This document shows, one piece after another, positions 913 to 13,734 of a stretch of DNA of 64,000 nucleotides. The position numbers were made by a program, and so were the translations under genes. Location of the stretch: contig CAWFGW010000025.1 of NCBI GenBank assembly GCA_963815495.1, forward strand, positions 7,013 through 71,012. Reading direction: 5' to 3'. Numbering within the stretch: position 1 is the stretch's first letter; each line of letters begins with the position of its first letter. The DNA is from an uncultured Cytophagales bacterium (GTDB lineage Bacteria; Bacteroidota; Bacteroidia; Cytophagales; JAAEPT01). Below the pieces are notes generated by a model. That model saw only the letters and a list, made by a program, of their open reading frames with translations, was not told the DNA's origin and did no database searches.

Positions 913-3900
913 ATGTTCGCTAAAATCTCCCCTAAACTCATTGCCATAGCAATAGGTACAATTACCCTTTTTGCCGTAGGTTTCTACTTTTTAAACAAAA
1001 CATCATCCACCGACTCTGAAGCCTATGTTGAGAAAGAAGTTAACGAAGCCTTTAATGAATATATCGCTGCGTATACTTCGGGTAATATCTCCATCAGTTC
1101 GACTATTCAAATTCGTTTTACACAACCTCAAATTGTAGAAGATAAAATAGGTTCGGCAGAAACGCGGGAGCTTTTCAACTTTTCTCCCTCCATTAAAGGT
1201 GATGTTAAATGGGTGGATATTTTCACTCTTGAATTTCAACCAACAGAATGGTTAAAACCAGACCAAGTGTATGAAGTCAAATTCCTCTTGTCTGATTTGA
1301 TGGAGACAAAAAAAGGATTAGAAAAATTTGAGTTCAACTTTCACACCCTTAAACAAGATTTTGAAGTCACAATTGGCAACTTACTAACCTCTGCCGAAAA
1401 CATGAAAAAGGTGGCTTTATCGGGTAAACTCATTACTGCGGATGTAGCACAACAAGAAAAAATTGAAGCGACCTTATCCGCTACTCAAAATAATAACACC
1501 TTAGAAATCACTTGGAATCACTTAGGCGATACCGAACATGAATTTACAATTGCCAACATCGACCGAAAAGAAACAGCCAGTGAAGTAGTTTTAAATTGGG
1601 ATGGGGCAAAGATTGGCGTTGATAAAAAAGGGGAATCCAAAACTAAAATCCCTGCCCTGGGTGACTTTCAAATTATGAGTGTCACACCTCAAGTTGGAAC
1701 CGAACAATATATACTCATTTCCTTCTCTGATCCGCTTGACCCTTCTCAGGATTTAAAAGGATTAATTACCACCAACCAAAACTGTGACCTGAAATTCATC
1801 ATTGAAAACAACTTTATTCAGGTTTACCCGAGTAAAAAAATTATTGGCTCTTTTGAATTAACCCTCCATCCAGGCATCAAAAATGTCTTAGGCTACAAGT
1901 CAAAAAAAGAACAGAAACATATTCTAGTCTTTGAACAAGTAAAACCTGCTGTACGTCTTATAGGTTCTGGGGTAATTGTCCCGGCTTCCAATGGGCTCAT
2001 CTTCCCTTTTGAAGCAGTAAGTTTAAAAGCCGTTGACATTACCATCACCGAGATTTTTGAAAACAATGCGATTCAGTTTTTCCAGCACAACAACATAGAC
2101 GGAAGTCATGATTTAAAACGTGTGGCTCGACCGATTTTTAGAAAAAGTCTAGTACTCAACAACAACAAACTACTCAAACTCAATAAGTGGAACCGTTTTT
2201 CTATTGATTTAGCCAAACTAATTCAACCCAACCCTGGTGCAATCTACCAAGTAGAAATAGGGTTCAGACAAAGTCAAAGTGTCTATAGCTGTGGTGGCGA
2301 AGCAGCGCAGGATGAATTAACACCCATCAATGATGAGGCGTGGACAGCTGAGTCGTACACCGATTATTCGTATTGGGATTATGCTGAAGGAGAATATTAT
2401 GAAGACTACGACTGGCAAGAGCGCGACAATCCGTGCCATTCAACCTATTTTCGAAGCAACGACAAAAGTTCCACAAGAAACATCATCGCCAGTAACTTAG
2501 GGATCATTTCTAAAATCGGGAAAGACGATAAAGTATTCATAGCGGTCACAGATATTAATACCACCAATCCTATTGAAAATGTAACCATCGAAGTCTACGA
2601 TTTCCAACAACAGCTCATCACCCAAGGAGCAACAGATAACAACGGGTTTTTAACGCTCAAAACTAATAGAAAATCATTTCTGATTAAGGCCACTAAAGAA
2701 AACGATATCAACTACTTAAAGGTAGATGATGGGTCTGCGCTTTCCTTAAGCAACTTTAATGTGGGTGGTACAACCATTCAAAAAGGGTTGAAAGGATTTA
2801 TCTATGGCGAACGTGGTGTTTGGCGACCAGGCGACACCTTGTATATGACCTTAATTTTGGAAGATAAAAATCATGTGTTACCCAAGAACCACCCCGTAAT
2901 TTTTGAACTCCGCAATCCTGATGGGAAACTAGAACATAAGCTCGTTAAAAAATCTAACGTGAATGGGTTTTATACCTATCAACCCATCACCAGCAACGAA
3001 GCGATGACGGGCAACTGGCGGGTATATGCAAAAATTGGGAACACCTCATTTTCTGAGCGTGTGAAGATTGAGACCATCAAACCCAACCGACTGAAAATTG
3101 ATTTAGACTATGGAAAAGAATACCTCACTGTAAATGATAAAAACCTCAAGGGTGATTTAGAAGTCAAGTGGCTGCATGGCGGTATTGCTAAAAACTTAAA
3201 AGCTGAATTTGAACTCGTTTTGACCAAAGCAAACACCACGTTCCCAAAATATGAAACGTACACCTTTGAAGATCAAACGCGACAATTTACTCCTGAGGTC
3301 TTCTCGATTTTTGAAGGTGAACTAGATAGTGAAGGAAAAGCTCAAATCCCGGCTAGCATCGAAATTGAAGGTGATGCTCCAGGTAAATTAAACGCACACT
3401 TTAAAGGGAAAGTCTATGAACAAGGCGGTGACTTTAGCATCAACCAATTTACAATCCCTTATTATCCTTATAATTCATTCGTAGGTGTTCGTTTGCCTGA
3501 AGGTGATCACCGAGGCATGTTATTGACGGACAAAGAGCAACCGGTTGACATCATTTGCCTAACTCCGGAAGGAGAACCAACTGGTAACAAATATGTGACT
3601 TGCCAAGTCTATAAGTTAGATTGGAAATGGTGGTGGGACCAATCGTCTAACAGTTCTTCCAACTACATTGGAGTTAGTTATCGAACACCTATTGCGGAAC
3701 AGCAAGTTAAAATAACGGATGGCAAAGGGACTTTTCCAATGAAAATCAACTACCCGGAATGGGGACGATATTATGTAAAAGTCACCGACAACAAGTCAGG
3801 ACACTCAGCAGGTAAAATTGTCTATTTTGATTGGCCAGGTTGGGCAGGAAAAGCCAAACGCGATTTACCCGATGCAGCTTCGATGTTAACTTTCTCGGCT

Positions 3901-6477
3901 GACAAAGAAAAATACAGCGTGGGAGAAACGATGAAACTGACCATTCCTGGAAGTGGTGAAGGAAATGCATTGATCAGTGTAGAAAATGGTACGCGTGTAA
4001 TAGAAACTTATTGGATGAAGTTGAACAAAGGAGACAACCAGTTCACAATCAACATCAACAATAAAATGACTCCGAATGTGTATGTGCATGTGACCGCATT
4101 ACAACCCCATGCACAAACAATTAATGATCACCCCATTAGAATGTACGGTGTAATTCCAATTGATGTGGCTGATGAATCAACCCATCTAAATCCAGTAATC
4201 TCGATGCCTAAGAAGTTAGCGCCTAATAAGAAAGTTCCGATTACGGTAACAGAGAAAGAAGGCAAACCGATGACCTTTACCCTCGCTGTGGTGGATGAAG
4301 GTTTGTTGAGTTTGACCAACTACACCACCCCGAATCCCTGGCCTAACTTCTACCAGCATGAAGCCTTAGGGGTAAACACCTGGGACATTTACAAATATGT
4401 ATTAGGGGCTTATGGTGGAGAAATAGAAAAGATACTATCCGTAGGTGGTGATGCTGCTATCCTTAATGAAGAAGGAGCAAAAGCCAAACGATTCAAACCT
4501 GTTGTGCGTTTCTTCGGACCTTTCCATCTGGACAAGTCGGGTAAAAAGGATATCGAATTTGTGATGCCTAACTACATTGGCGCGGTGCGTACAATGGTGG
4601 TAGCTGGTTATGAAGGTGCTTACGGTGCTGTGGAAACAGAAACTCCTGTGCGGCAAGAACTCATGGTACAGGGGACCTTACCTCGGGTGCTTTCTCCAGG
4701 TGAAAAGTTAAAATTACCCGTGAATGTGTTTGCCTATGAAAACAATATTGGCGCCACAACCATCAAAGTTAAAACAAGTGGACCCGTAAAGGCATTGGAA
4801 ACGACCAAGTCAATTACTTTGACCAAAGAAGGGGATCAAATGCTGTACTTCGAACTAGAAGTTGAAAACAAAATCGGGATTGCTAAAGTAGAAATTGAAG
4901 GCAGAGCTGGGAATAAGCTCTCTACCCATGTGATTGATATTGAGGTAAGAAACCCCAACCCGGTGGTTACTGAGACCTTTGAAAAAGTCTTGAAATCGGG
5001 TGAGTCGATTAGCTATACCTACCCTACGTTGGGCATGAAAGGTACCAATGGTTATTCATTTGAAGCTTCCACAGTTCCGCCATTAAACCTTTCCAAGCGG
5101 CTGGAATACCTGCTTCGTTATCCGCATGGTTGTGTCGAGCAAACCACTTCGGCTGCGTTCCCACAACTGTTTTTGGGTGAGTTAACGGATTTGACCAGCG
5201 AAATGAAAAGCAGAGTGGAAATCAACATCAAAAAAGCGATAGACCGTTTGTCAAGTATGCAAGTCTCGGATGGTGGTTTCAGCTACTGGCCAACACATAG
5301 CTATGCAAACACCTGGGGATCTAACTATGCAGGACATTTCTTAATCATCGCTAAGAAGAAAGGATATTATGTCAATACCGATATCATTAATAACTGGAAA
5401 CAGTACCAGAAAAAAGCGGCAGACAACTGGACTCATAATACCAATTATTATAACAGTGACTTAATGCAAGCTTACCGCTTGTACACCTTGGCTGTCGCGG
5501 GTTCACCTAACAAAGGCGCAATGAACCGCTTGAAAGAAAAGCAACTGAACAAAACTGCTCAGTACATGCTAGCCGCTGCCTATGCGTTGGATGGTCGCAG
5601 TGATGTTGCCAAAACCTTGATCGCCTCTGCCCCACCAACCATTAAAGACTATCGTGAATATGGGTACACGTATGGTTCACAAGAACGAGACGAAGCTATG
5701 TTATTATTAGCTTTAAATGCTATGAAAGATGTAGAAAACGGGATGGTTGCTGTGAAAAAAATTAGCGACCGACTCAATGCCAAACGCTGGATGAGTACGC
5801 AGGAAACGTCCTTTTCGTTATTGGCAATCAGCGATTACATGGCCGGACAACCGGTTTCTTCAACCGTAAACTTGGATATGAATTTGAACGACCAAAACGT
5901 TTCCATCTCCTCGCAATATTCCGTGTACAAACAAGAATTTCACGAGGCAGAATTGACCAATAAAACCATCAAGGTTACCAACACGAGTAATGGATTGTTG
6001 TACCTCAACACAAGCTCTTATGGCAAACCTTTGGTAGACAAAAGAGAAAGCTTCAATGAAATTATTGATATGGAAGTGAACTACCGTGACAAAGAAGGTA
6101 ACGCAATAAATGTAAACCAACTGGCTCAAAACAAAGACTTCCTCGTATCGGTAACGATCCAAAATGGTGGACTTCGAGGTGACTTAAAGGAAATGGCTTT
6201 GACCACGATCTTCCCTTCTGGCTGGGAAATTCAAAATGCACGCATGGATGTAGTTGCGGAACAATACCAGTCAGACAAACCCGACTACCAGGACTACCGC
6301 GATGACCGTGTGTACACCTATTTCGACATCAAATCAGGAGCTTCAAAGACATTTACCTTCCTGATTAATGCAAGTTATGCGGGTGAATTTACCCTACCAG
6401 CCACCCAATGTGAAGCAATGTATGATAATGCGGTGCAGGCTTATGTGAAAGGTGGGAAGACCAAGACGGTGAAGTGA
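913..6477 (+). CDS. Bacterial alpha-2-macroglobulin family protein (1854 aa), thioester-containing, N-terminal membrane anchor
   Basis: Very long ORF. It has an N-terminal TM segment (LIAIAIGTITLFAVGFYFL) and the CxEQ thioester motif in RYPHGCVEQTTSAAFPQ. A terpenoid-cyclase-like TED region follows (SDGGFSYWP). Size and layout match YfhM/ECAM-type A2M. Confidence 0.9.
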   Translation: MFAKISPKLIAIAIGTITLFAVGFYFLNKTSSTDSEAYVEKEVNEAFNEYIAAYTSGNISISSTIQIRFTQPQIVEDKIGSAETRELFNFSPSIKGDVKWVDIFTLEFQPTEWLKPDQVYEVKFLLSDLMETKKGLEKFEFNFHTLKQDFEVTIGNLLTSAENMKKVALSGKLITADVAQQEKIEATLSATQNNNTLEITWNHLGDTEHEFTIANIDRKETASEVVLNWDGAKIGVDKKGESKTKIPALGDFQIMSVTPQVGTEQYILISFSDPLDPSQDLKGLITTNQNCDLKFIIENNFIQVYPSKKIIGSFELTLHPGIKNVLGYKSKKEQKHILVFEQVKPAVRLIGSGVIVPASNGLIFPFEAVSLKAVDITITEIFENNAIQFFQHNNIDGSHDLKRVARPIFRKSLVLNNNKLLKLNKWNRFSIDLAKLIQPNPGAIYQVEIGFRQSQSVYSCGGEAAQDELTPINDEAWTAESYTDYSYWDYAEGEYYEDYDWQERDNPCHSTYFRSNDKSSTRNIIASNLGIISKIGKDDKVFIAVTDINTTNPIENVTIEVYDFQQQLITQGATDNNGFLTLKTNRKSFLIKATKENDINYLKVDDGSALSLSNFNVGGTTIQKGLKGFIYGERGVWRPGDTLYMTLILEDKNHVLPKNHPVIFELRNPDGKLEHKLVKKSNVNGFYTYQPITSNEAMTGNWRVYAKIGNTSFSERVKIETIKPNRLKIDLDYGKEYLTVNDKNLKGDLEVKWLHGGIAKNLKAEFELVLTKANTTFPKYETYTFEDQTRQFTPEVFSIFEGELDSEGKAQIPASIEIEGDAPGKLNAHFKGKVYEQGGDFSINQFTIPYYPYNSFVGVRLPEGDHRGMLLTDKEQPVDIICLTPEGEPTGNKYVTCQVYKLDWKWWWDQSSNSSSNYIGVSYRTPIAEQQVKITDGKGTFPMKINYPEWGRYYVKVTDNKSGHSAGKIVYFDWPGWAGKAKRDLPDAASMLTFSADKEKYSVGETMKLTIPGSGEGNALISVENGTRVIETYWMKLNKGDNQFTININNKMTPNVYVHVTALQPHAQTINDHPIRMYGVIPIDVADESTHLNPVISMPKKLAPNKKVPITVTEKEGKPMTFTLAVVDEGLLSLTNYTTPNPWPNFYQHEALGVNTWDIYKYVLGAYGGEIEKILSVGGDAAILNEEGAKAKRFKPVVRFFGPFHLDKSGKKDIEFVMPNYIGAVRTMVVAGYEGAYGAVETETPVRQELMVQGTLPRVLSPGEKLKLPVNVFAYENNIGATTIKVKTSGPVKALETTKSITLTKEGDQMLYFELEVENKIGIAKVEIEGRAGNKLSTHVIDIEVRNPNPVVTETFEKVLKSGESISYTYPTLGMKGTNGYSFEASTVPPLNLSKRLEYLLRYPHGCVEQTTSAAFPQLFLGELTDLTSEMKSRVEINIKKAIDRLSSMQVSDGGFSYWPTHSYANTWGSNYAGHFLIIAKKKGYYVNTDIINNWKQYQKKAADNWTHNTNYYNSDLMQAYRLYTLAVAGSPNKGAMNRLKEKQLNKTAQYMLAAAYALDGRSDVAKTLIASAPPTIKDYREYGYTYGSQERDEAMLLLALNAMKDVENGMVAVKKISDRLNAKRWMSTQETSFSLLAISDYMAGQPVSSTVNLDMNLNDQNVSISSQYSVYKQEFHEAELTNKTIKVTNTSNGLLYLNTSSYGKPLVDKRESFNEIIDMEVNYRDKEGNAINVNQLAQNKDFLVSVTIQNGGLRGDLKEMALTTIFPSGWEIQNARMDVVAEQYQSDKPDYQDYRDDRVYTYFDIKSGASKTFTFLINASYAGEFTLPATQCEAMYDNAVQAYVKGGKTKTVK

Positions 6478-6583
6478 TATGAAAGATAAAATAACTGCAA
6501 CCGAATTTTGGGAAGAGTTATTAAAAACTGGCTCGGTTAATAATAAAGAATTAACTGAGGGATTTGTTTTTAAAAAACATGCA

Positions 6584-7293
6584 CCGCTAGCGCAAGCATC
6601 CTTGCTTGTGCTAAATAAATAATGGGTAGTCCAGCGATGTAGCTTTTTTGTTTAATCTGTTAATTTTTATTAAATAGTATTTTTAAACATTATTTGAATG
6701 AGCAGGAAGTATAAATTTTTAAATAAAGAAGGCTTATATTTTGTCAGCTTTGCCACGGTCTACTGGATAGATGTTTTTACAAGGGAAGAGTATTTTGAGA
6801 AAGTTGTTGAAAGTATCAGGTTCTGCCAGAAGCAAAAAGGTTTAGAACTTTTTTCATGGTGTATAATGACCAACCATGTGCATATGATATTTAGAGCTAA
6901 AGACAATAATCCATCAGAATTAATGCGAGCATTAAAAACATTTACATCAAACGAATTACAGAAGATAATTGCTGAACATAATCAAGAGAGCAGAAAAGAA
7001 TGGATGCTTTGGTTGATGGAACGAGCAGCACAAAAATCTAGTAATGTAAAACACAGGCAATTTTGGAGGCAAGATAATAAACCAATAGAACTTTGGAGTG
7101 CAGAAGTAATAGATCAAAAATTACAATACATCCATATGAACCCAATAGTAGCAGGATTTGTCAATGAACCAGAACATTGGAGGTATAGTAGTGCAATTGA
7201 TTTTTCTGGAGGTAAAGGTTTGTTAGAATTATATGAATTGTAAATTGAGTTATGAATTAAAATTTGCACAAGCAAGGATGCTTGCGCTAGCGG
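6584..7293 (+). mobile_element. REP-RAYT-REP unit, copy 1: RAYT gene bracketed by perfect 28-nt inverted repeats (6584-6611 and 7266-7293)
   Basis: Left IR is ccgctagcgcaagcatccttgcttgtgc. Right IR is its exact reverse complement, gcacaagcaaggatgcttgcgctagcgg. Each IR folds on its own (gcgcaagca/tcct/tgcttgtgc) directly 3' of a CTAG tetranucleotide. Confidence 0.8.
6698..7243 (+). CDS. REP-associated tyrosine transposase (RAYT; IS200/IS605-like Y1/HUH TnpA family), copy 1
   Basis: 181 aa. HUH motif in MTNHVHMIF and a catalytic-Tyr region YIHMNPIVAGF (Y-x-x-x-NP), with RYSS near the C-terminus. No tnpB partner. Flanked by REP hairpins. Confidence 0.8.
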   Translation: MSRKYKFLNKEGLYFVSFATVYWIDVFTREEYFEKVVESIRFCQKQKGLELFSWCIMTNHVHMIFRAKDNNPSELMRALKTFTSNELQKIIAEHNQESRKEWMLWLMERAAQKSSNVKHRQFWRQDNKPIELWSAEVIDQKLQYIHMNPIVAGFVNEPEHWRYSSAIDFSGGKGLLELYEL

Positions 7294-7361
7294 GGAAAAT
7301 ATCCCTATGTTGGAGGTACAGTAATACCTCCAACAAAAATTATTGTTAAACGACCTTAGAT

Positions 7362-7682
7362 ATGTCTGTATTAGAAATTGATAAAATTGATGCTATTGGA
7401 ATAGATAAAGAACAAGGTAATGTTGTTTTGACTATTTCTGACCATTTAGATTGGGATGATGTAAATAGTCATCTTCATATTCTTCAAAAGAAAATCAATA
7501 ATTATTTAGAATTTATTGAGGGGGGACAGATTTATGAATCATATCCACTTGCGAATAATAAAAATATAGAGATTCATGTTAAATATCAATATGAATTACC
7601 ACATTTGGCTCTTGATTTTTATGAAAAAATAAAATCTGTTTTGATTTTAGAAAACATAACACTTCTTTATAAGAATCTTTAA
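7362..7682 (+). CDS. Hypothetical small cytoplasmic protein (106 aa) occupying variable slot 1 of the island
   Basis: Clean ORF with no signal peptide. The pattern VVLTISDHLDW..HLHILQKKINNYLEFIEGGQIY resembles a widespread ~100-aa uncharacterised family that I recall only from memory (unverified). Confidence 0.5.
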   Translation: MSVLEIDKIDAIGIDKEQGNVVLTISDHLDWDDVNSHLHILQKKINNYLEFIEGGQIYESYPLANNKNIEIHVKYQYELPHLALDFYEKIKSVLILENITLLYKNL

Positions 7683-7688
7683 CTTAAT

Positions 7689-7780
7689 CCCGCTAGGTCG
7701 CATATAACGAAGTGAAATGCGAACTGATGTTACCCCCGCTAGGTCGCATATAACGAAGTGCCATGCGAACTGATGTTTTA
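7689..7780 (+). repeat. Two tandem 46-nt REP-like hairpin units (CCCGCTAG + GTCGCAT-loop-ATGCGAAC)
   Basis: Unit 1 is 7689-7734 and unit 2 is 7735-7780. They differ by 2 nt in the loop and in the tail. Stem is tcgcat (7698-7703) with atgcga (7717-7722). They share the CCGCTAG 5' heptamer with the RAYT-flanking IRs. Confidence 0.75.
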
Positions 7781-7979
7781 TAGCATTTGTAATGCGGTTA
7801 TAAGAGATACAAATCCTATAGCGCAAGGTTAAGCAAAGCGGTCCTTGGGCTTACCCTTTATTCGACATTTGCAATGTCAAACTACAGATAAAAAAGATTT
7901 GTAATCAGCTCTGCCTTGGTTTGTGTATCCAAAACCAACGACAGTTAGTCAGTGAGGACACTGACTAAGGCGAGATGAA

Positions 7980-8066
7980 GATTTGTTTTCAAGATGAAGA
8001 GATTCCAGACAATCACTCATTCTTCGTGATTTCTGATGACGTGTTGCTCATTTTTTATCGTCATTC
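7980..8066 (+). repeat. ~88-nt multi-hairpin intergenic repeat, copy a (upstream of T9SS paralog A)
   Basis: The sequence gatttgttttcaagat..agattccagacaatcactcattcttcgtgatttctg.atgacg..ttttttatcgtcattc recurs at 9335-9423, 11596-11682 and 12952-13040. It contains IR cagacaatcac/gtgatttctg and IR (g)aatgacg/cgtcatt(c). Confidence 0.8.
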
Positions 8067-8148
8067 TAAAAAATAGTGTTTACCTATAGGTGTACACAAG
8101 TATATAAAAGCATATTAAATCTTGTAACCTAACATTACCTTTTAGACG

Positions 8149-9204
8149 ATGAAAAAACTACTACTACCCTTGATTTTAATTTCCGCAGTATTTCACGCAT
8201 ATGCCGTTGATGAAATTCAGTTTGTTGACACCGTTTATGTCGAGTACCACCCACATTGTGACACCATCGCAGCTGTTCACATTGAAGGATGGTTTCCGGC
8301 AAGTAATTATGTCATTGACAGCATAGCAAATAAACCTATTGTCCACACAGGCCCTGGTCCAATAACAATTGCTGGACCTGAAATTCAGCTTTACATATCA
8401 GAAACCGGGGGTGTTGGCACCCAATCTCCTGTTCCGTTTAAATCCGTTTATTACCTTCTTACCAAGGGTAGCAGCAACACATTCACGACACCCTATAGGT
8501 TTGTACCATTGATAGTTTACACCTACTTAAATCAGGATCTGTTGGAGGAGGTGAAACAGGCTGACTATAAATACAGAGGACAGACAGGTTGTGTAAGTGT
8601 AATCCCAGCTTGTGACAACATCACCACTTATGAAGTATCGCTTGGCTGTCCGAGTAAACCCATTACAAATTGCGATTCTTTGCAAGTTCATATCTCTACT
8701 GATTATGTTCCTTGTATGGGCTATACATTGATAGAAACCACTCAAACATTCAAAAACGACACGGTTATCATCAAACATCAATTTCTGTACGATGACAACG
8801 GCCCTATTTGCATCGACTATTTTGGACCTTCATTTCAATTCACTAAAATAAAACCTCTAGATGCCGGAGATTATGTCGCAAAGGTAGAAATGCATTTTAC
8901 AGGTGAATTGATATTTAAAGCTCCTGAATATTACTACAAAGATTTTACAGTAAATAAAGAGACGTGTCTCATCACAGGGATAAATGAATTCAATCAAAAA
9001 TCGATGGTTTATCCGTCCGTGGTAGAGGATTACCTGAATCTAACTATTTCAGCTGAAAAAGTGCAAATTTATGATATGCAAGGCAATCAAGTGATGACAG
9101 CTCAGGGGAAAACGGTGCTTTTAAATAATTTACAGCCAGGGAATTACATTATAGAAATACAAACCAAAAAGGGGTTGTTTAGAGAAAAAATCATCAAGTT
9201 ATAA
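8149..9204 (+). CDS. Secreted Cys-rich protein with T9SS C-terminal sorting domain, paralog A (351 aa)
   Basis: Signal peptide MKKLLLPLILISAVFHAYA|VDE. The C-terminal ~70 aa (VYPSVVEDYLNLTI..VQIYDMQGNQV...LQPGNYIIEIQTKKGLFREKIIKL) matches the Por/T9SS type A CTD pattern. The central part has no family I recognise. Confidence 0.75.
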   Translation: MKKLLLPLILISAVFHAYAVDEIQFVDTVYVEYHPHCDTIAAVHIEGWFPASNYVIDSIANKPIVHTGPGPITIAGPEIQLYISETGGVGTQSPVPFKSVYYLLTKGSSNTFTTPYRFVPLIVYTYLNQDLLEEVKQADYKYRGQTGCVSVIPACDNITTYEVSLGCPSKPITNCDSLQVHISTDYVPCMGYTLIETTQTFKNDTVIIKHQFLYDDNGPICIDYFGPSFQFTKIKPLDAGDYVAKVEMHFTGELIFKAPEYYYKDFTVNKETCLITGINEFNQKSMVYPSVVEDYLNLTISAEKVQIYDMQGNQVMTAQGKTVLLNNLQPGNYIIEIQTKKGLFREKIIKL

Positions 9205-9207
9205 ATT

Positions 9208-9240
9208 AAGAAGAGCCACTATAAAGTGGCTCTTCTTTTA
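9208..9240 (+). terminator. Rho-independent terminator of T9SS paralog A
   Basis: Perfect 12-bp stem aagaagagccac / gtggctcttctt with loop tataaa, followed by T-rich sequence. Confidence 0.7.
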
Positions 9241-9334
9241 ATGATTGCTTTACATTGCACTTTTTACTGGCTTAAGTTTAGCTTGCGTAACTTTAGTCAA
9301 TGATAAACTCAAGAATTCCTCATTTTAGATCTAT

Positions 9335-9423
9335 GATTCGTTTTCAAGATTGTTAGATTCCAGACAATCACTCATTCTTCGTGATTTCTGGAATGACGTA
9401 TTGTTTATTTTTTATCGTCATTC
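9335..9423 (+). repeat. ~88-nt multi-hairpin repeat, copy b (downstream of paralog A)
   Basis: About 88% identical by eye to 7980-8066, in the same orientation. Contains the perfect IR ggaatgacg...cgtcattcc. A further IR follows at 9421-9458 (attccgta...tacggaat). Confidence 0.8.
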
Positions 9424-9475
9424 CGTAAAATGTGAAGCATGAGCATTTGTACGGAATCTCTTTGTTGAAACCTCA

Positions 9476-10185
9476 CCGCTAGCGCAAGCATCCTTGCTTG
9501 TGCTAAATAAATAATGGGTAGTCCAGCGATGTAGCTTTTTTGTTTAATCTGTTAATTTTTATTAAATAGTATTTTTAAACATTATTTAAATGAGCAGGAA
9601 GTATAAATTTTTAAATAAAGAAGGCTTATATTTTGTCAGCTTTGCCACGGTCTACTGGATAGATGTTTTTACAAGGGAAGAGTATTTTGAGAAAGTTGTT
9701 GAAAGTATCAGGTTCTGCCAGAAGCAAAAAGGTTTAGAACTTTTTTCATGGTGTATAATGACCAACCATGTGCATATGATATTTAGAGCTAAAGACAATA
9801 ATCCATCAGAATTAATGCGAGCATTAAAAACATTTACATCAAACGAATTACAGAAGATAATTGCTGAAAATAATCAAGAGAGCAGAAAAGAATGGATGCT
9901 TTGGTTGATGGAACGAGCAGCACAAAAATCTAGTAATGTAAAACACAGGCAATTTTGGAGGCAAGATAATAAACCAATAGAACTTTGGAGTGCAGAAGTA
10001 ATAGATCAAAAATTACAATACATCCATATGAACCCAATAGTAGCAGGATTTGTCAATGAACCAGAACATTGGAGGTATAGTAGTGCAATTGATTTTTCTG
10101 GAGGTAAAGGTTTGTTAGAATTATATGAATTGTAAATTGAGTTATGAATTAAAATTTGCACAAGCAAGGATGCTTGCGCTAGCGG
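9476..10185 (+). mobile_element. REP-RAYT-REP unit, copy 2 (IRs 9476-9503 and 10158-10185)
   Basis: By my base-by-base comparison it is 708/710 nt identical to 6584-7293. The differences are 6696 g vs 9588 a and 6977 c vs 9869 a. The 28-nt terminal IRs are identical. Confidence 0.8.
9590..10135 (+). CDS. REP-associated tyrosine transposase (RAYT), copy 2
   Basis: 181 aa, identical to copy 1 except H94N (CAT to AAT). Confidence 0.8.
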   Translation: MSRKYKFLNKEGLYFVSFATVYWIDVFTREEYFEKVVESIRFCQKQKGLELFSWCIMTNHVHMIFRAKDNNPSELMRALKTFTSNELQKIIAENNQESRKEWMLWLMERAAQKSSNVKHRQFWRQDNKPIELWSAEVIDQKLQYIHMNPIVAGFVNEPEHWRYSSAIDFSGGKGLLELYEL

Positions 10186-10269
10186 GGGAAGTAGTATAAA
10201 TTTGATAATTGAATGATGTGTCTCAACTATATAATTAAAATGTATCGAGCGGACGCTCTACAAATAATT

Positions 10270-10301
10270 GGTCGTAGAAACGCTTCGCTAAATCTACGAC
10301 C
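10270..10301 (+). repeat. REP-like hairpin ggtcgtaga-N14-tctacgacc upstream of the 364-aa ORF
   Basis: Perfect 9-bp stem. Its 3' 21 nt (10281-10301, cgcttcgctaaatctacgacc) recur inverted at 11435-11455 (ggtcgtaggtttagcgaagcg), a 20/21 match. Confidence 0.7.
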
Positions 10302-10327
10302 AGATGGGGTTATAACTTATTAATAAA

Positions 10328-11422
10328 ATGACTCTAATAGCAGCATATATTCATAAAGGAAAAGCACATATCATAGCAGATTCTGCCGAAACAATGTCTT
10401 TCTCTACACCTTTTAAAATAAAAAATTCTCCAAGGGATAAGGATTTTTCATCATTATTTGAGCTACCATACTTTAATGAAAAAGAACAAAAAATAGTTAT
10501 GGAGGCTACAAATAAAATTTACTGTCTTAATAATGAACTTATATTAACATTTTCGGGAAGTGTCTCTGAAGGAGAAGATATAACTAAACAAATTAAATAC
10601 TCCCTAGAAAGAGATAACATTGAATCAATACCATCATTAATCTTATCAATATTAAAGAAACTTCAACCCACTAAATCACAATATATAGTAGGTGGAATGG
10701 AAAACGATTATCCATTTCTTGTTTATTATTTTGATGATAACAATCATAAAATATTAACAAAATTAGATCATTTACCATTATGTATAGCTGGTTATGGTAC
10801 ACAAATAGGATTTTCTCACTTGATAGAACAGACTATAAAGGACATCATAAAAAATCATGAACTGACATGCGAAGAATCATTAGTAATGGTTTGTTCCATT
10901 TGTCAATTTTTTTCACTGAAAGAATTAACTCTTAAAGATGGTGTGGGAGGATTTTTGAATGGCGTATTAATTTCCAAAGATGGAATCGAATGGGTAAGTG
11001 ACACTACATTTGTACAATATTCAGCAAAAAACCCTAAAGGAGATAAATATGTTTCACATAAATATAACAGGGATAATTCCGTCTTTATAATTGCTCCACA
11101 TTTTAAAAGTTGTTTTACAAACAGTTTGGAAACCTACAAAATGAATGATTTAGTGAAAAAATGGCAAGATGATATAGTTAATAAAAGTAATAATATTCCA
11201 TCCATTTATTTTGTTATGATATCTTATGATACTGCAACAATGGTAATCATCAGCAACAAGCGTAATAAAAAAAACAGAATAACCCTAAAAAATCTAAATG
11301 GGGATAAAATATTTAATTTTACATCAGAAACTATTAAGCATATGACTTCGTCTTATCATTCAGATAATATAGAAGAAATTGCACCTTATTTTTACACAAA
11401 TTTTTTAAGTTGGATTAATTAA
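10328..11422 (+). CDS. Hypothetical 364-aa protein: putative divergent proteasome-beta/HslV-like Ntn-hydrolase domain (aa ~1-225) plus unknown C-terminal domain; occupies variable slot 2
   Basis: By-eye motif match. M-T(1)LIAAYI; Asp at mature position 17 (HIIAD17S); ATNK(62)[21 protein letters not shown] vs E. coli HslV KK(33)[44 protein letters not shown] vs the beta-subunit hhhGG.D..gP.Ly.hD..G pattern; [10 protein letters not shown] at the GSG position; [19 protein letters not shown] vs D..SGG.h.h.hI.kdG. A ~29-aa insertion lies between D17 and the Lys. Not verified by any search. Confidence 0.4.
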   Translation: [364 protein letters not shown]

Positions 11423-11595
11423 GTCACTTCCACTGGTCGTAGGTTTAGCGAAGCGGTCCTTGTGGCTTACCCTCTGTTCGACATTTGCAATGTCAAACTA
11501 CAGATAAAAATGATTTGTAATCAGCTCTGCCTTGGCTTGTGTCTCCAAAACCAACGACAGTTGGTCAGTGAGGACACTGACTAAGGCGAGGTGAA

Positions 11596-11682
11596 GATTT
11601 GTTTTCAAGATGAAGAGATTACAGACAATCACTCATTCTTCGTGATTTCTGATGACGTGTTGCTCATTTTTTATCGTCATTC
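11596..11682 (+). repeat. ~88-nt multi-hairpin repeat, copy c
   Basis: Matches 7980-8066 with 1 substitution (ccagac to acagac). Confidence 0.8.
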
Positions 11683-11765
11683 TAAAAAATAGTGTTTACC
11701 TATGGGTGTACACAAGTATATAAAAGCATATTAAATCTTGTAACCTAACATTACCTTTTAAGACG

Positions 11766-12821
11766 ATGAAAAAACTACTACTACCCTTGATTTTACTTTC
11801 TGCTGTATTCCACGCTTATGCCGTTAATGAAATTCAGTTTGTTGACACCGTTTATGTCGAGTACCACCCACATTGTGACACCATCGCAGCTGTTCACATT
11901 GAAGGATGGTTTCCGGCAAGTAATTATGTCATTGACAGCATAGCAAATAAACCTATTGTCCACACAGGCCCTGGTCCAATAACAATTGCTGGACCTGAAA
12001 TTCAGCTTTACATATCAGAAACCGGGGGTGTTGGCACCCAATCTCCTGTTCCGTTTAAATCCGTTTATTACCTTCTTACCAAGGGTAGCAGCAACACATT
12101 CACGACACCCTATAGGTTTGTACCATTGATAGTTTACACCTACTTAAATCAGGATCTGTTGGAGGAGGTGAAACAGGCTGACTATAAATACAGAGGACAG
12201 ACAGGTTGTGTAAGTGTAATCCCAGCTTGTGACAACATCACCACTTTTGACGTATCGCTTGGCTGTCCAAGTAAACCCATTACAAATTGTGATTCTTTAC
12301 AAGTTCTTATCTCTACTGATTATGTTCCTTGTATGGGCTATACATTGATAGAAACCACTCAAACATTCAAAAAAGATACGGTTATCATCAAACATCAATT
12401 TCTGTACGATGACAACGGCCCTATTTGCATCGACTATTTTGGACCTTCATTTCGATTCACTAAAATAAAACCTCTAGATGCCGGAGATTATGTCGCAAAG
12501 GTAGAAATGCATTTTACAGGTGAATTGATATTTAAAGCTCCTGAATATTACTACAAAGATTTTACAGTAAATAAAGAGACGTGTCTCATCACAGGGCTAA
12601 ATGAATTCAATCAAAAATCGATGGTTTATCCGTCCGTGGTAGAGGATTACCTGAATCTAACTATTTCAGCTGAAAAAGTGCAAATTTATGATATGCAAGG
12701 CAATCAAGTGATGACAGCTCAGGGGAAAACGGTGCTTTTAAATAATTTACAGCCAGGGAATTACATTATAGAAATACAAACCAAAAAGGGGTTGTTTAGA
12801 GAAAAAATCATCAAGTTATAA
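11766..12821 (+). CDS. Secreted Cys-rich protein with T9SS C-terminal sorting domain, paralog B (351 aa)
   Basis: Differs from paralog A by 8 aa (I11L, D21N, Y/F, E/D, H/L, N/K, Q/R, I/L). Same signal peptide and CTD. Confidence 0.75.
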   Translation: MKKLLLPLILLSAVFHAYAVNEIQFVDTVYVEYHPHCDTIAAVHIEGWFPASNYVIDSIANKPIVHTGPGPITIAGPEIQLYISETGGVGTQSPVPFKSVYYLLTKGSSNTFTTPYRFVPLIVYTYLNQDLLEEVKQADYKYRGQTGCVSVIPACDNITTFDVSLGCPSKPITNCDSLQVLISTDYVPCMGYTLIETTQTFKKDTVIIKHQFLYDDNGPICIDYFGPSFRFTKIKPLDAGDYVAKVEMHFTGELIFKAPEYYYKDFTVNKETCLITGLNEFNQKSMVYPSVVEDYLNLTISAEKVQIYDMQGNQVMTAQGKTVLLNNLQPGNYIIEIQTKKGLFREKIIKL

Positions 12822-12824
12822 ATT

Positions 12825-12857
12825 AAGAAGAGCCACTATAAAGTGGCTCTTCTTTTA
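12825..12857 (+). terminator. Rho-independent terminator of T9SS paralog B
   Basis: Same 12-bp stem-loop as 9208-9240. Confidence 0.7.
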
Positions 12858-12951
12858 ATAATTGCTTTACATTGCACTTTTTACTGGCTTAAGTTTAGCT
12901 TGCGTAACTTTAGTCAATGATAAACTCAAGAATTCCTCATTTTAGATCTAT

Positions 12952-13040
12952 GATTCGTTTTCAAGATTGTTAGATTCCAGACAATCACTCATTCTTCGTG
13001 ATTTCTGGAATGACGTATTGTTTATTTTTTATCGTCATTC
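12952..13040 (+). repeat. ~88-nt multi-hairpin repeat, copy d
   Basis: Identical to 9335-9423 as far as I can read. Confidence 0.8.
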
Positions 13041-13143
13041 CGTAAAATGTGAAGCATGAGCATTTGTACGGAATCTCTTTGTTGAAACCTCCCTTAGCTC
13101 AAATTACGCTGAAAAAGCAATCGTTTAGCCAAAAATCGCAGCA

Positions 13144-13734
13144 TTAACCTTTATTATTATCTACCAAAAACCCTTCAGCCCTCAACTTCACAATGTCAAA
13201 AAACTCAGTAAAACCATCTTCCAATTCGTTGTAATGTTTCTTTAACTCAACCACAGCTGAATGCATGGTGTTTTGGTAAGGCGTTCTGCGCGACATGCTT
13301 TTCAGGATCTGATCAATACCATCAACTGTTGGGTATGACTGAATCCAATTCCGTTTTTTCATGTAATAAAAGTATTGTCCTGCTTTGTAATTAAGCCAGC
13401 TGTGATGTTGGTCAATCATTGCATAATAAATACTAGCCGCGTCTATCAGTGGGAGTTCGGAATAGGCCCTCCAGTTTTTGGCTAAAAAATGATCATATAC
13501 TACATCTATAATTACACTGGAATAATGTCGATGATTTATAAAGACACTTTTACTCGCTTTTGAAACTTCGTGATTGTCCATCAAAAAATCAATTTCGCGA
13601 TGCAAATCTATACCTTTTTGAATCCGCAAAGGTAAAGCGTCATATTCTTTTTTTGTCACAAAGTCACCTAAGAAATTTCCCGTTAAAATTTCTGAATCGT
13701 TAAACGAAAGGTAGAAGTGTGCTAAATAGTTCAA
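13144..13734 (-). CDS. acpH: Acyl carrier protein phosphodiesterase (AcpH); probable TTG start at 13734 (ORF-track ATG at 13812 likely too long)
   Basis: AcpH proteins start M-N-(F/Y)-L-A-H and are ~195 aa. Here the sequence ..TA-L-NYLAHFYLSFNDSEILTGNFLGDFV has TTG (complement of 13732-13734) exactly at that position. The ATG-initiated ORF would add 26 unrelated residues. Confidence 0.75.
   Translation of the reverse strand: MNYLAHFYLSFNDSEILTGNFLGDFVTKKEYDALPLRIQKGIDLHREIDFLMDNHEVSKASKSVFINHRHYSSVIIDVVYDHFLAKNWRAYSELPLIDAASIYYAMIDQHHSWLNYKAGQYFYYMKKRNWIQSYPTVDGIDQILKSMSRRTPYQNTMHSAVVELKKHYNELEDGFTEFFDIVKLRAEGFLVDNNKG

Follow-up and report, generated by a model that had tools for sequence, protein, structure and literature searches.

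A tandemly doubled REPtron locus with two unrelated gene slots in an uncultured Cytophagales bacterium

Introduction

A stretch of 64,000 nucleotides (nt) from an uncultured Cytophagales bacterium (contig CAWFGW010000025.1 of assembly GCA_963815495.1, positions 7,013 to 71,012; hereafter the window) carries two abutting units of similar build between its genes for a bacterial alpha-2-macroglobulin (A2M) and an ACP phosphodiesterase (acpH). Each unit has a gene for a REP-associated tyrosine transposase (tnpA-REP or RAYT) flanked by inverted repetitive extragenic palindromes (REPs), an arrangement known as a REPtron (Ton-Hoang et al., 2012, PMC3333891), followed by a slot with its own gene and then by a gene for a predicted cargo protein of the type IX secretion system (T9SS). 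The question raised by this locus is how two such units came to stand in tandem with near-identical outer parts and unrelated slots. The answer favored here, at a probability of about 0.5, is that the A2M-acpH interval is a hairpin-rich hypervariable locus around a REPtron, caught in a merodiploid-like state in which the segment composed of REPtron, slot and T9SS gene with its 3′ hairpin element is present twice, with two slot alleles.

Organization of the Locus

The features of the interval are listed below, with R denoting the REPtron and T the T9SS gene with its flanking sequence (CDS, coding sequence; ORF, open reading frame; aa, amino acids).

913..6477, plus strand: A2M gene (bacterial alpha-2-macroglobulin, 1854 aa), left core flank; Pfam bMG3, MG2, bMG5, bMG6, A2M_BRD, A2M, TED and bMG10
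6582..7295, plus strand: R1, REPtron copy 1; left REP 6584-6614, RAYT CDS 6698-7243 (181 aa), right inverted REP 7263-7293
7296..7825, plus strand: slot 1; DUF6572 ORF 7362-7682 (106 aa), 46-nt hairpin units 7684-7777
7826..9474, plus strand: T1, T9SS-protein gene and flanks; CDS 8149-9204 (351 aa)
9474..9476, no strand: T1-R2 joint, where the end of the 140-nt hairpin element meets the REP 5′ terminus
9474..10187, plus strand: R2, REPtron copy 2; left REP 9476-9506, RAYT CDS 9590-10135, right REP 10155-10185
10188..11440, plus strand: slot 2; hairpin 10270-10301, ORF364 10328-11422, bracketing inverted repeat
11441..13091, plus strand: T2, second T9SS gene module; CDS 11766-12821, terminator 12825-12854, 140-nt hairpin element 12952-13091
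13092..13143, no strand: spacer with a degenerate small hairpin, ahead of the acpH stop codon
13144..13734, minus strand: acpH (ACP phosphodiesterase, ~196 aa), right core flank; Pfam ACP_PD 7e-58

An earlier note, made from the letters of this DNA, had described two abutting composite units between core genes, and most of that anatomy stands. The Pfam matches bear out both core flanks. By BLAST and by global alignment R1 and R2 are identical at 712 of 714 nt, with mismatches at 6696 and 6977 (708 of 710 had been counted), and T1 is separated from T2 by 28 mismatches and two 1-nt indels (98.2% identity). The latter differences are indeed few and clustered, being concentrated at 7831-8209 and 8630-8980 with none at all in 8210-8629 and 9244-9474; the start of the homology, placed earlier at 7821/11436, lies at 7826/11441. 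T1 and T2 share their 3′ limit (9474/13091) and R1 and R2 their start, which leaves the single base 9475 between the units, as had been noted. The slots at 7296-7825 and 10188-11440 have zero mutual similarity. A simple tandem duplication would give a single colinear joint, which is present, and homology over the full length, which the slots break; the earlier judgment that plain tandem duplication does not suffice is thus upheld.

The window has a mean G+C content of 35.7%; slot 1 has 30.6%, slot 2 28.7%, R 33% and T 37%. The island had been called more AT-rich as a whole, which fits the slots and R and fails for T. The A2M gene has an unusually high G+C content of 41%, which inflates the contrast with the island, and the clearly AT-rich parts are the slots only.

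Related Loci

Five related loci were recovered via homologous proteins. Their gene orders are given here with identities to the window.

L081, flanks 94-96%: A2M, degenerate REP, old RAYT remnant, ORF129, R, ORF72 and ORF157, solo 62-nt REP, T, acpH
L088, flanks 83-88%: A2M, solo REP, old RAYT remnant, ORF87, R, ORF143, T, acpH
L095, 85-87%: A2M, 1.3 kb without RAYT or REP, T, acpH
L082-85, A2M 73% and T 84%: A2M, M23-like gene, orf97, T, orf97, PBP1C; no RAYT
L094, 78-86%: ends 225 nt past acpH, with the 140-nt hairpin element there

Synteny at A2M is kept in L081, L088, L095 and L082. The alignment of relatives proposed earlier as a check gave one-unit sites, with a single R-slot-T unit each in L081 and L088. 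As for empty sites, the RAYT is missing from L095 and L082-85, and no clean empty site was found among these loci. L088 and L095 come from the same sample as L081 (ERZ25039505), in which several congeneric lineages co-occur, and they contain many frameshifted genes, which points to a low-coverage long-read assembly.

The REPtron Is a Discrete Unit

The 181-aa RAYT matches the NCBIfam model NF047646 (REP_Tyr_transpos) at 88.9 bits (cutoff 80), and scores 34.7 against the IS200 model, below its threshold of 55. Its sequence contains the motifs NHVH, YIHMNP and WRYSS. In the published motif table, TnpA-Y1 subclass 2.6 has NH[LIV]H, YIH[QN]NP and an SS at the C terminus, with proteins of about 179 aa, and it is described as a Bacteroidetes-specific class whose REPs lack GT[AG]G (PMC6006769); the RAYT thus has an M in place of the published Q or N. 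This Bacteroidetes form is also known as Bertels Group 5 (PMC6006769, PMC5581495), and the protein of R is assigned to it on the basis of motifs, rather than with the hidden Markov models of the subclass authors, as a predicted Bacteroidota subclass 2.6 member.

Both RAYT copies lie within a 31-nt inverted repeat of 97% complementarity whose arms are 648 nt apart, and a folding energy of −11.2 kcal/mol (z −2.4) was obtained for the REP hairpin. Four copies of the 28-mer REP are present in the window, each flanking a RAYT gene, where chance predicts 0 copies. A search for further copies of this repeat and of an 88-nt repeat described below had been proposed; each has four copies in the window, and with six errors allowed no REP was found in it outside the island. 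RAYT homologues at 71–75% aa identity (L091, L092 from Pontibacter, and L097) have the same architecture of inverted REPs, as do L081 and L088. The REP conserved in the distant homologues reads CAC(C)GCTRGCGCRAGC-loop-GCTYGTGC, and its stems vary at paired positions with complementarity retained. Since these distant homologues show the same REP architecture in gene contexts that are otherwise unrelated, R is considered to be an ordinary REPtron, a unit of 714 bp.

The boundaries of R are base-exact in all four copies from this locus (R1, R2, L081 and L088), with ..CA/CCGCTAG on the left (the slash marking the boundary), GCGCTAGCGGGG on the right and unrelated DNA on both sides. Each window copy has one private derived change (6696 in R1, 6977 in R2). 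Between lineages R is 98.2–98.7% identical, while the flanks of the same lineages are at 83–96%. Compared with the L088 copy, R is 98.5% identical with 11 evenly spread differences, five synonymous and three non-synonymous at the codon level, against flanks of 77–92% per 300 nt. R is absent in L095 and L082. Because the identity of R across lineages far exceeds that of its flanks, the copies share a recent ancestry, which horizontal movement of the unit or REP-anchored conversion could explain. Bertels et al. remarked that Group 5 RAYTs evolve unusually slowly (PMC5581495). Conservation by protein-level selection alone was considered and rejected, since synonymous and non-coding sites are conserved too: 5 of 181 codons are synonymously changed relative to L088, far below what flanks of 83–88% predict.

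A REPtron that is single-copy, immobile and vertically inherited does not describe what was found, namely two copies at 99.7% here, three at 97–98% in L097 and an identity out of line with the flanks. The two contigs L097 and L098, reached through a RAYT of 71% identity that many contigs carry, have three REPtrons in the same orientation (1395-2064, 3919-4591 and 6236-6898), mutually 97.4–98.5% identical and separated by unrelated ORFs (a GerE-type regulator and several small ORFs without a family), with no other segment duplicated; the first RAYT has been shortened to 156 aa. The sequences of L097 and L098 part within the third copy's right REP, at a DDE_5 insertion-sequence fragment. This difference had been a candidate for a clean slot swap, which was rejected, the insertion-sequence fragment having truncated the right REP.

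Solo REPs were identified inside the locus in L081 (9567-9628) and L088 (9394-9468), each with ~30 nt of the left end of R past the hairpin, and also in unrelated intergenic contexts of another metagenome (L089 91-121 and L090 3458-3491); the REP pattern was absent from viral contigs. In addition, L081 (7386-7508) and L088 (9565-9702) contain 5′ of R, in the same orientation, the remnant of an older and different RAYT, with 59–62% aa identity over the C-terminal 41–47 residues and a stop codon in L088. It follows from this remnant that the locus hosted RAYTs at least twice. Together with the L097 array, these same-orientation remnants show what is probably a tendency of subclass 2.6 REPtrons to multiply at one locus.

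The T9SS Gene and the Hairpin Elements

The 351-aa ORF of T scores 37.8 bits against TIGR04183 (cutoff 23) and 29.7 against PF18962 (cutoff 27). With a signal peptide recognized by eye at its N-terminus (MKKLLLPLILISAVFHAYA) and a Por_Secre_tail sorting domain, the product is a predicted T9SS type A cargo protein. No family match was obtained for its N-terminal ~280 residues. Only two homologue clusters were found in 5.8e9 proteins, and the protein is confined to this genus-level group. The T1 and T2 proteins differ at eight residues, the codon differences being eight synonymous and eight non-synonymous. The gene lies among the following hairpin elements.

7906-7975 and 11522-11590: double-hairpin unit before each T9SS gene
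7980-8074: 88-nt repeat in T1
9208-9237: terminator hairpin in T1
9264-9298: small hairpin in T1

The 88–89-nt repeat has one copy before and one after each T9SS gene. The 140-nt element at the 3′ end of T (9335-9474 and 12952-13091) is one long imperfect hairpin (−22.4 kcal/mol, z −4.5), the left half of which is the 88-nt repeat that also precedes each T9SS gene. The 140-nt element adjoins acpH in L094, a distant relative (reverse strand, 66-205). The tail segment 12918-13123 containing it had no match in L081, L088 or L095.

The earlier note had taken the T9SS module to be cargo of a composite unit, and this was not confirmed. Orthologues of T occupy the position downstream of A2M in L081 and L088, with one R, and in L095 and L082-85, with none. 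Identity of T is 97% in L081 against 94–96% for the flanks, and 86.8% in L088 against 83–88%. As T follows A2M in every relative found, including two RAYT-less lineages, and diverges with its flanks, comparison of the loci identifies it as a resident, genus-specific gene, and mobile cargo was rejected. That an apparent cargo module proved to be a resident gene is a caution for the reading of composite repeats in general.

The Slots and Their Genes

The slot contents are unrelated in all four copies of R, with the DUF6572 ORF in slot 1, ORF364 in slot 2, ORF72 and ORF157 in L081, and ORF143 in L088, and every slot starts directly after the right REP (GCGCTAGCGGGG). With no two of the four slots related in content, the site next to the right REP is a replacement hot spot, occupied by different AT-rich ORFs in each lineage. 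In this respect the earlier suggestion of cassette replacement between conserved flanks is borne out. The far boundaries of the slots are heterogeneous.

Slot 1, in which a 106-aa ORF and tandem hairpins had been seen, encodes a protein matching Pfam PF20212 (DUF6572) at 1.5e-34. DUF6572 is the C-terminal region of type VII secretion system immunity proteins in Streptococcus suis, where it binds EssC (PMC12558993). By analogy, its occurrence as a stand-alone protein in a Bacteroidota slot hints at effector-immunity biology. Behind the ORF are ~1.9 tandem copies of a 46-nt hairpin unit (Tandem Repeats Finder, period 46) with a CCGCTAG 5′ tag as in the REP, and a degenerate REP left arm lies near 7811-7824. 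No homology was found between slot 1 and slot 2, the L081 slot or the L088 slot.

In slot 2, ORF364 is bracketed by an inverted repeat as claimed, although this measures 28 nt at 89% complementarity (10276-10303 and 11433-11460) and not 21 nt. ORF364 belongs to a rare uncharacterized family of 135 clusters at 50% identity, in the alignment of which T2, D18 and K63 are invariant. The AlphaFold2 model made from that alignment has a pLDDT of 91 (36 for the single-sequence model), and its best Foldseek matches are 20S beta subunits (E 8e-11). A proteasome beta-subunit fold is modelled for residues 1 to ~240, with a C-terminal domain of ~120 aa behind it, and in the predicted model Thr2, Asp18 and Lys63 are placed like the Thr1/Asp17/Lys33 triad of the proteasome. 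ORF364 therefore appears, on this model, to be a putative stand-alone proteasome-beta-like N-terminal nucleophile hydrolase. A PADLOC defense search with the slot proteins gave marginal matches only (E 2.5e-4 or weaker), so that the slots do not make a defense island by this measure, and the slot ORFs of L081 and L088 had nothing in PADLOC or Pfam.

The Joint and the Doubled State

The only novel joint of the doubled structure is at 9475, where ..GAAACCTC is followed by (C)A/CCGCTAG. One side of it is the end of the long 140-nt hairpin, and the other is the REP terminus that also bounds all copies of R and the solo REPs of L081 and L088. No ORF of at least 30 aa crosses the T1-R2 joint. The two parts of the units differ in their divergence, T1 and T2 at 1.7% versus 0.28% for R1 and R2. 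When polarized, ~10 of the T1/T2 differences are private to T1 and 5 to T2, and ~7 are common with either L081 or L088, for which reason these ~7 are regarded as polymorphisms shared across lineages. Such a pattern fits the joining of two allelic versions, or a duplication patched by exchange with other alleles, with partial homogenization following in either case. Both RAYT variants and both T9SS variants are listed on one public contig of 110,149 bp. A 1348-nt Logan unitig from a separate assembly (L096, run ERR12040027) is 100% identical to window positions 10159-11506 and stops exactly where R and T turn repeated; because it is identical in a separate assembly, the junctions of slot 2 are taken to be real.

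The course of events that we infer begins with a second allele of the locus being joined to the resident allele. This may have happened by duplication in situ followed by allelic exchange. Equally, DNA of another strain may have been integrated by way of homology, anchored in A2M or R at one end and joined at the REP terminus at the other. The joint may have been formed by illegitimate or homology-facilitated recombination at the REP end, or it may have been made by the RAYT. Patchy gene conversion at a later stage would account for the near identity of the R copies and the mosaic nature of T. Through recombination by RecA between the direct copies of R or of T, the structure would collapse to either single allele, and such collapse would offer a route for slot switching.

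Several observations weigh against this explanation. Read-level evidence spanning the T1-R2 joint is lacking, and no relative was found with either window slot allele in a single-unit context, so that the origin from two alleles is drawn from the patterns of single-nucleotide polymorphisms. Microhomology at the joint is weak (CC..TAGC). That the joint coincides exactly with the REP terminus suits its formation by the RAYT at least as well as generic illegitimate recombination, if not better; purified RAYTs cut next to REPs at CT or CA and carry out strand transfer (PMC8266576). Lastly, the three-REPtron array of L097 and L098 has no duplicated segment outside R, from which it follows that R can multiply without segmental duplication.

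Alternative Explanations

The closest competitor, possible yet clearly less probable than the two-allele explanation, treats R2 as a locally transposed REPtron. In this case R2 would have inserted after the 140-nt element of T1, making the joint a true transposon end, and S2-T2 (slot 2 with T2) would have arrived later by a double crossover, in R and acpH, with an R-S2-T2-acpH strain. The joint at the very terminus that bounds every R and solo REP is what transposition would produce, and all left ends in this locus read CA/CCGCTAG, in keeping with the reported cleavage at CT or CA by REPs (PMC8266576). Mobility of R would likewise suit its 98.2–98.7% identity where flanks are at 83–96%, its absence from L095 and L082, the few codon changes relative to L088, the L097/L098 arrays with unrelated DNA between same-orientation REPtrons, and the older RAYT remnant in the same orientation upstream of R in L081 and L088. 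However, neither a clean empty site nor a target duplication was found, R occupies the same interval in all three lineages that have it, which vertical descent with REP-anchored conversion would also explain, and Group 5 RAYTs are reported to evolve slowly (PMC5581495). A wider version, more doubtful still, holds that subclass 2.6 REPtrons are mobile units within and between related genomes which form same-orientation arrays and whose REP termini serve as capture and exchange sites for unrelated small genes, the window displaying a doubled two-allele state.

RAYT-catalyzed exchange of REP-bounded cassettes, in the manner of an integron, is improbable. Here the slot would be delimited by two inward-facing REP tags, the right REP of R on one side and, ahead of T, a solo or degenerate REP on the other, and RAYT cleavage at these tags would promote the capture or replacement of the enclosed gene. 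All slots do begin at the REP tag, and an element of REP type is present on the far side in three of four cases: the solo REP 9567-9628 in L081, the CCGCTAG-tagged 46-nt hairpins with a degenerate CCTATAGCGCAAGG arm in window slot 1, and the same degenerate arm in L088. REPtrons also alternate with small ORFs in L097. Yet the right boundaries are not uniform, the far side of slot 2 has no recognizable REP, none of the slot genes recurred at a second REP-bounded position, the insertion-sequence fragment and not a swap accounts for the difference between L097 and L098, and the reaction has no biochemical precedent. An assembly artefact is a poorer candidate again. The strain alleles R-S1-T and R-S2-T (S1 and S2 being the two slots) would then have been laid end to end in a metagenome-derived contig, an idea that gains from the relatives having come from metagenome assemblies with several co-occurring lineages and from both T variants occurring in the ERR12040027 read set behind L096. 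A false duplication has no reason to break at a REP terminus and at the end of the T homology, a de Bruijn assembler cannot invent the k-mers of the joint, each copy of R and T has derived changes of its own, and the four ORFs are intact.

The repeated insertion of composite mobile elements made up of REP-RAYT-REP, slot and T9SS module, which the earlier note had offered as its second possibility, is the least probable of all and is largely refuted. The units abut and their outer limits are identical, and the long hairpin in the tail of T could mimic a transposon end. However, T exists without R in two lineages and follows the divergence of the flanks, the 140-nt tail is found by acpH in L094, where no unit is visible, and is missing in L081, L088 and L095, RAYT homologues elsewhere (L091, L092 and L097) are not accompanied by T, and the T9SS protein occurs nowhere outside this locus. 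What remains of that idea is a possible insertion of R alone.

Comparison with Known Systems

R resembles described REPtrons in its 181-aa protein with NHVH, YIHxNP and SS, in its inverted hairpin repeats without GT[AG]G and in a REP conserved in distant homologues. It differs in the 99.7% identity of its two copies (97–98% for the three in L097), where the published within-genome mean of the subclass is ~41%, in the lack of REPs from the other 57 kb of the window, and in a cross-lineage nucleotide identity far above that of the flanks. Like IS200/IS605 elements it has a Y1 HUH enzyme, hairpins at both ends and all copies in one orientation; unlike them it scores below threshold with the IS200 model, has inverted copies of one REP as its ends in place of distinct left and right ends, and lacks tnpB.

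The doubled state also has precedents. Shyamala, Schneider and Ames reportedly described in 1990 tandem chromosomal duplications in Salmonella with join points at REP sequences. The present structure is similarly a direct tandem of a few kb with a single join point at a REP, but the REP is on one side of the joint only, the other side being the end of an unrelated 140-nt hairpin, and the internal segment differs between the copies. Merodiploid intermediates of allelic exchange (Campbell-type integration, homology-facilitated illegitimate recombination) likewise have two tandem alleles with one non-homologous joint and can be resolved to either allele by recombination between direct repeats; the window differs from them in being natural rather than vector-borne and in having its joint at an element that a transposase recognizes. 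Replacement-type flexible genomic islands and integron or rAID-like arrays share with this locus the placing of unrelated small AT-rich genes at one position by a recombinase-type gene. In contrast to such arrays, the locus has no IntI or tyrosine recombinase, no uniform attC-like site and no long array, and its enzyme is an HUH-Y1 nuclease.

RAYTs are generally seen as domesticated transposases, present in single copy and inherited vertically, that mobilize REPs only, and according to reviews there is no evidence for movement of the REPtron itself. A REPtron within a hypervariable locus is of an already known kind. What is new is the presence of near-identical tandem REPtron copies, now in two unrelated lineages (the window and L097), together with the joint at a REP terminus, a conservation of R out of step with its flanks and the turnover of genes next to the REP. 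If confirmed, the locus would be a concrete and testable case of REPtron mobility, and would tie RAYT/REP elements to local gene turnover.

Neighboring Genes and Other Observations

No tRNA gene was found within 20 kb of the locus and no integrase among the ORFs tested or the neighboring genes; an island of the tRNA or integrase type was rejected. An Rfam scan of 6300-13400 returned nothing above threshold, and promoter and terminator scans performed at best equally to shuffled sequence. The acpH orthologue of L081 is called at 196 aa. A scan for contigs with acpH gave only relatives at 40–46% identity, none of them syntenic.

The A2M neighborhood of L082-85 ends with PBP1C (L082 12134-14491; Transgly, Transpeptidase and BiPBP_C). 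A2M and pbpC are the usual gene pairing. As acpH stands in the lineage of the window where L082-85 has PBP1C, the locus has undergone rearrangement. In L082 the final 62 nt of A2M are repeated 200 nt downstream, and its T9SS gene lies between two 98%-identical segments with orf97 that are 2139 nt apart. Between all genes from A2M to PBP1C (L082 8150-12200) a double-hairpin unit of ~100 nt is present in five copies, and one unit of this type is retained ahead of each T9SS gene of the window.

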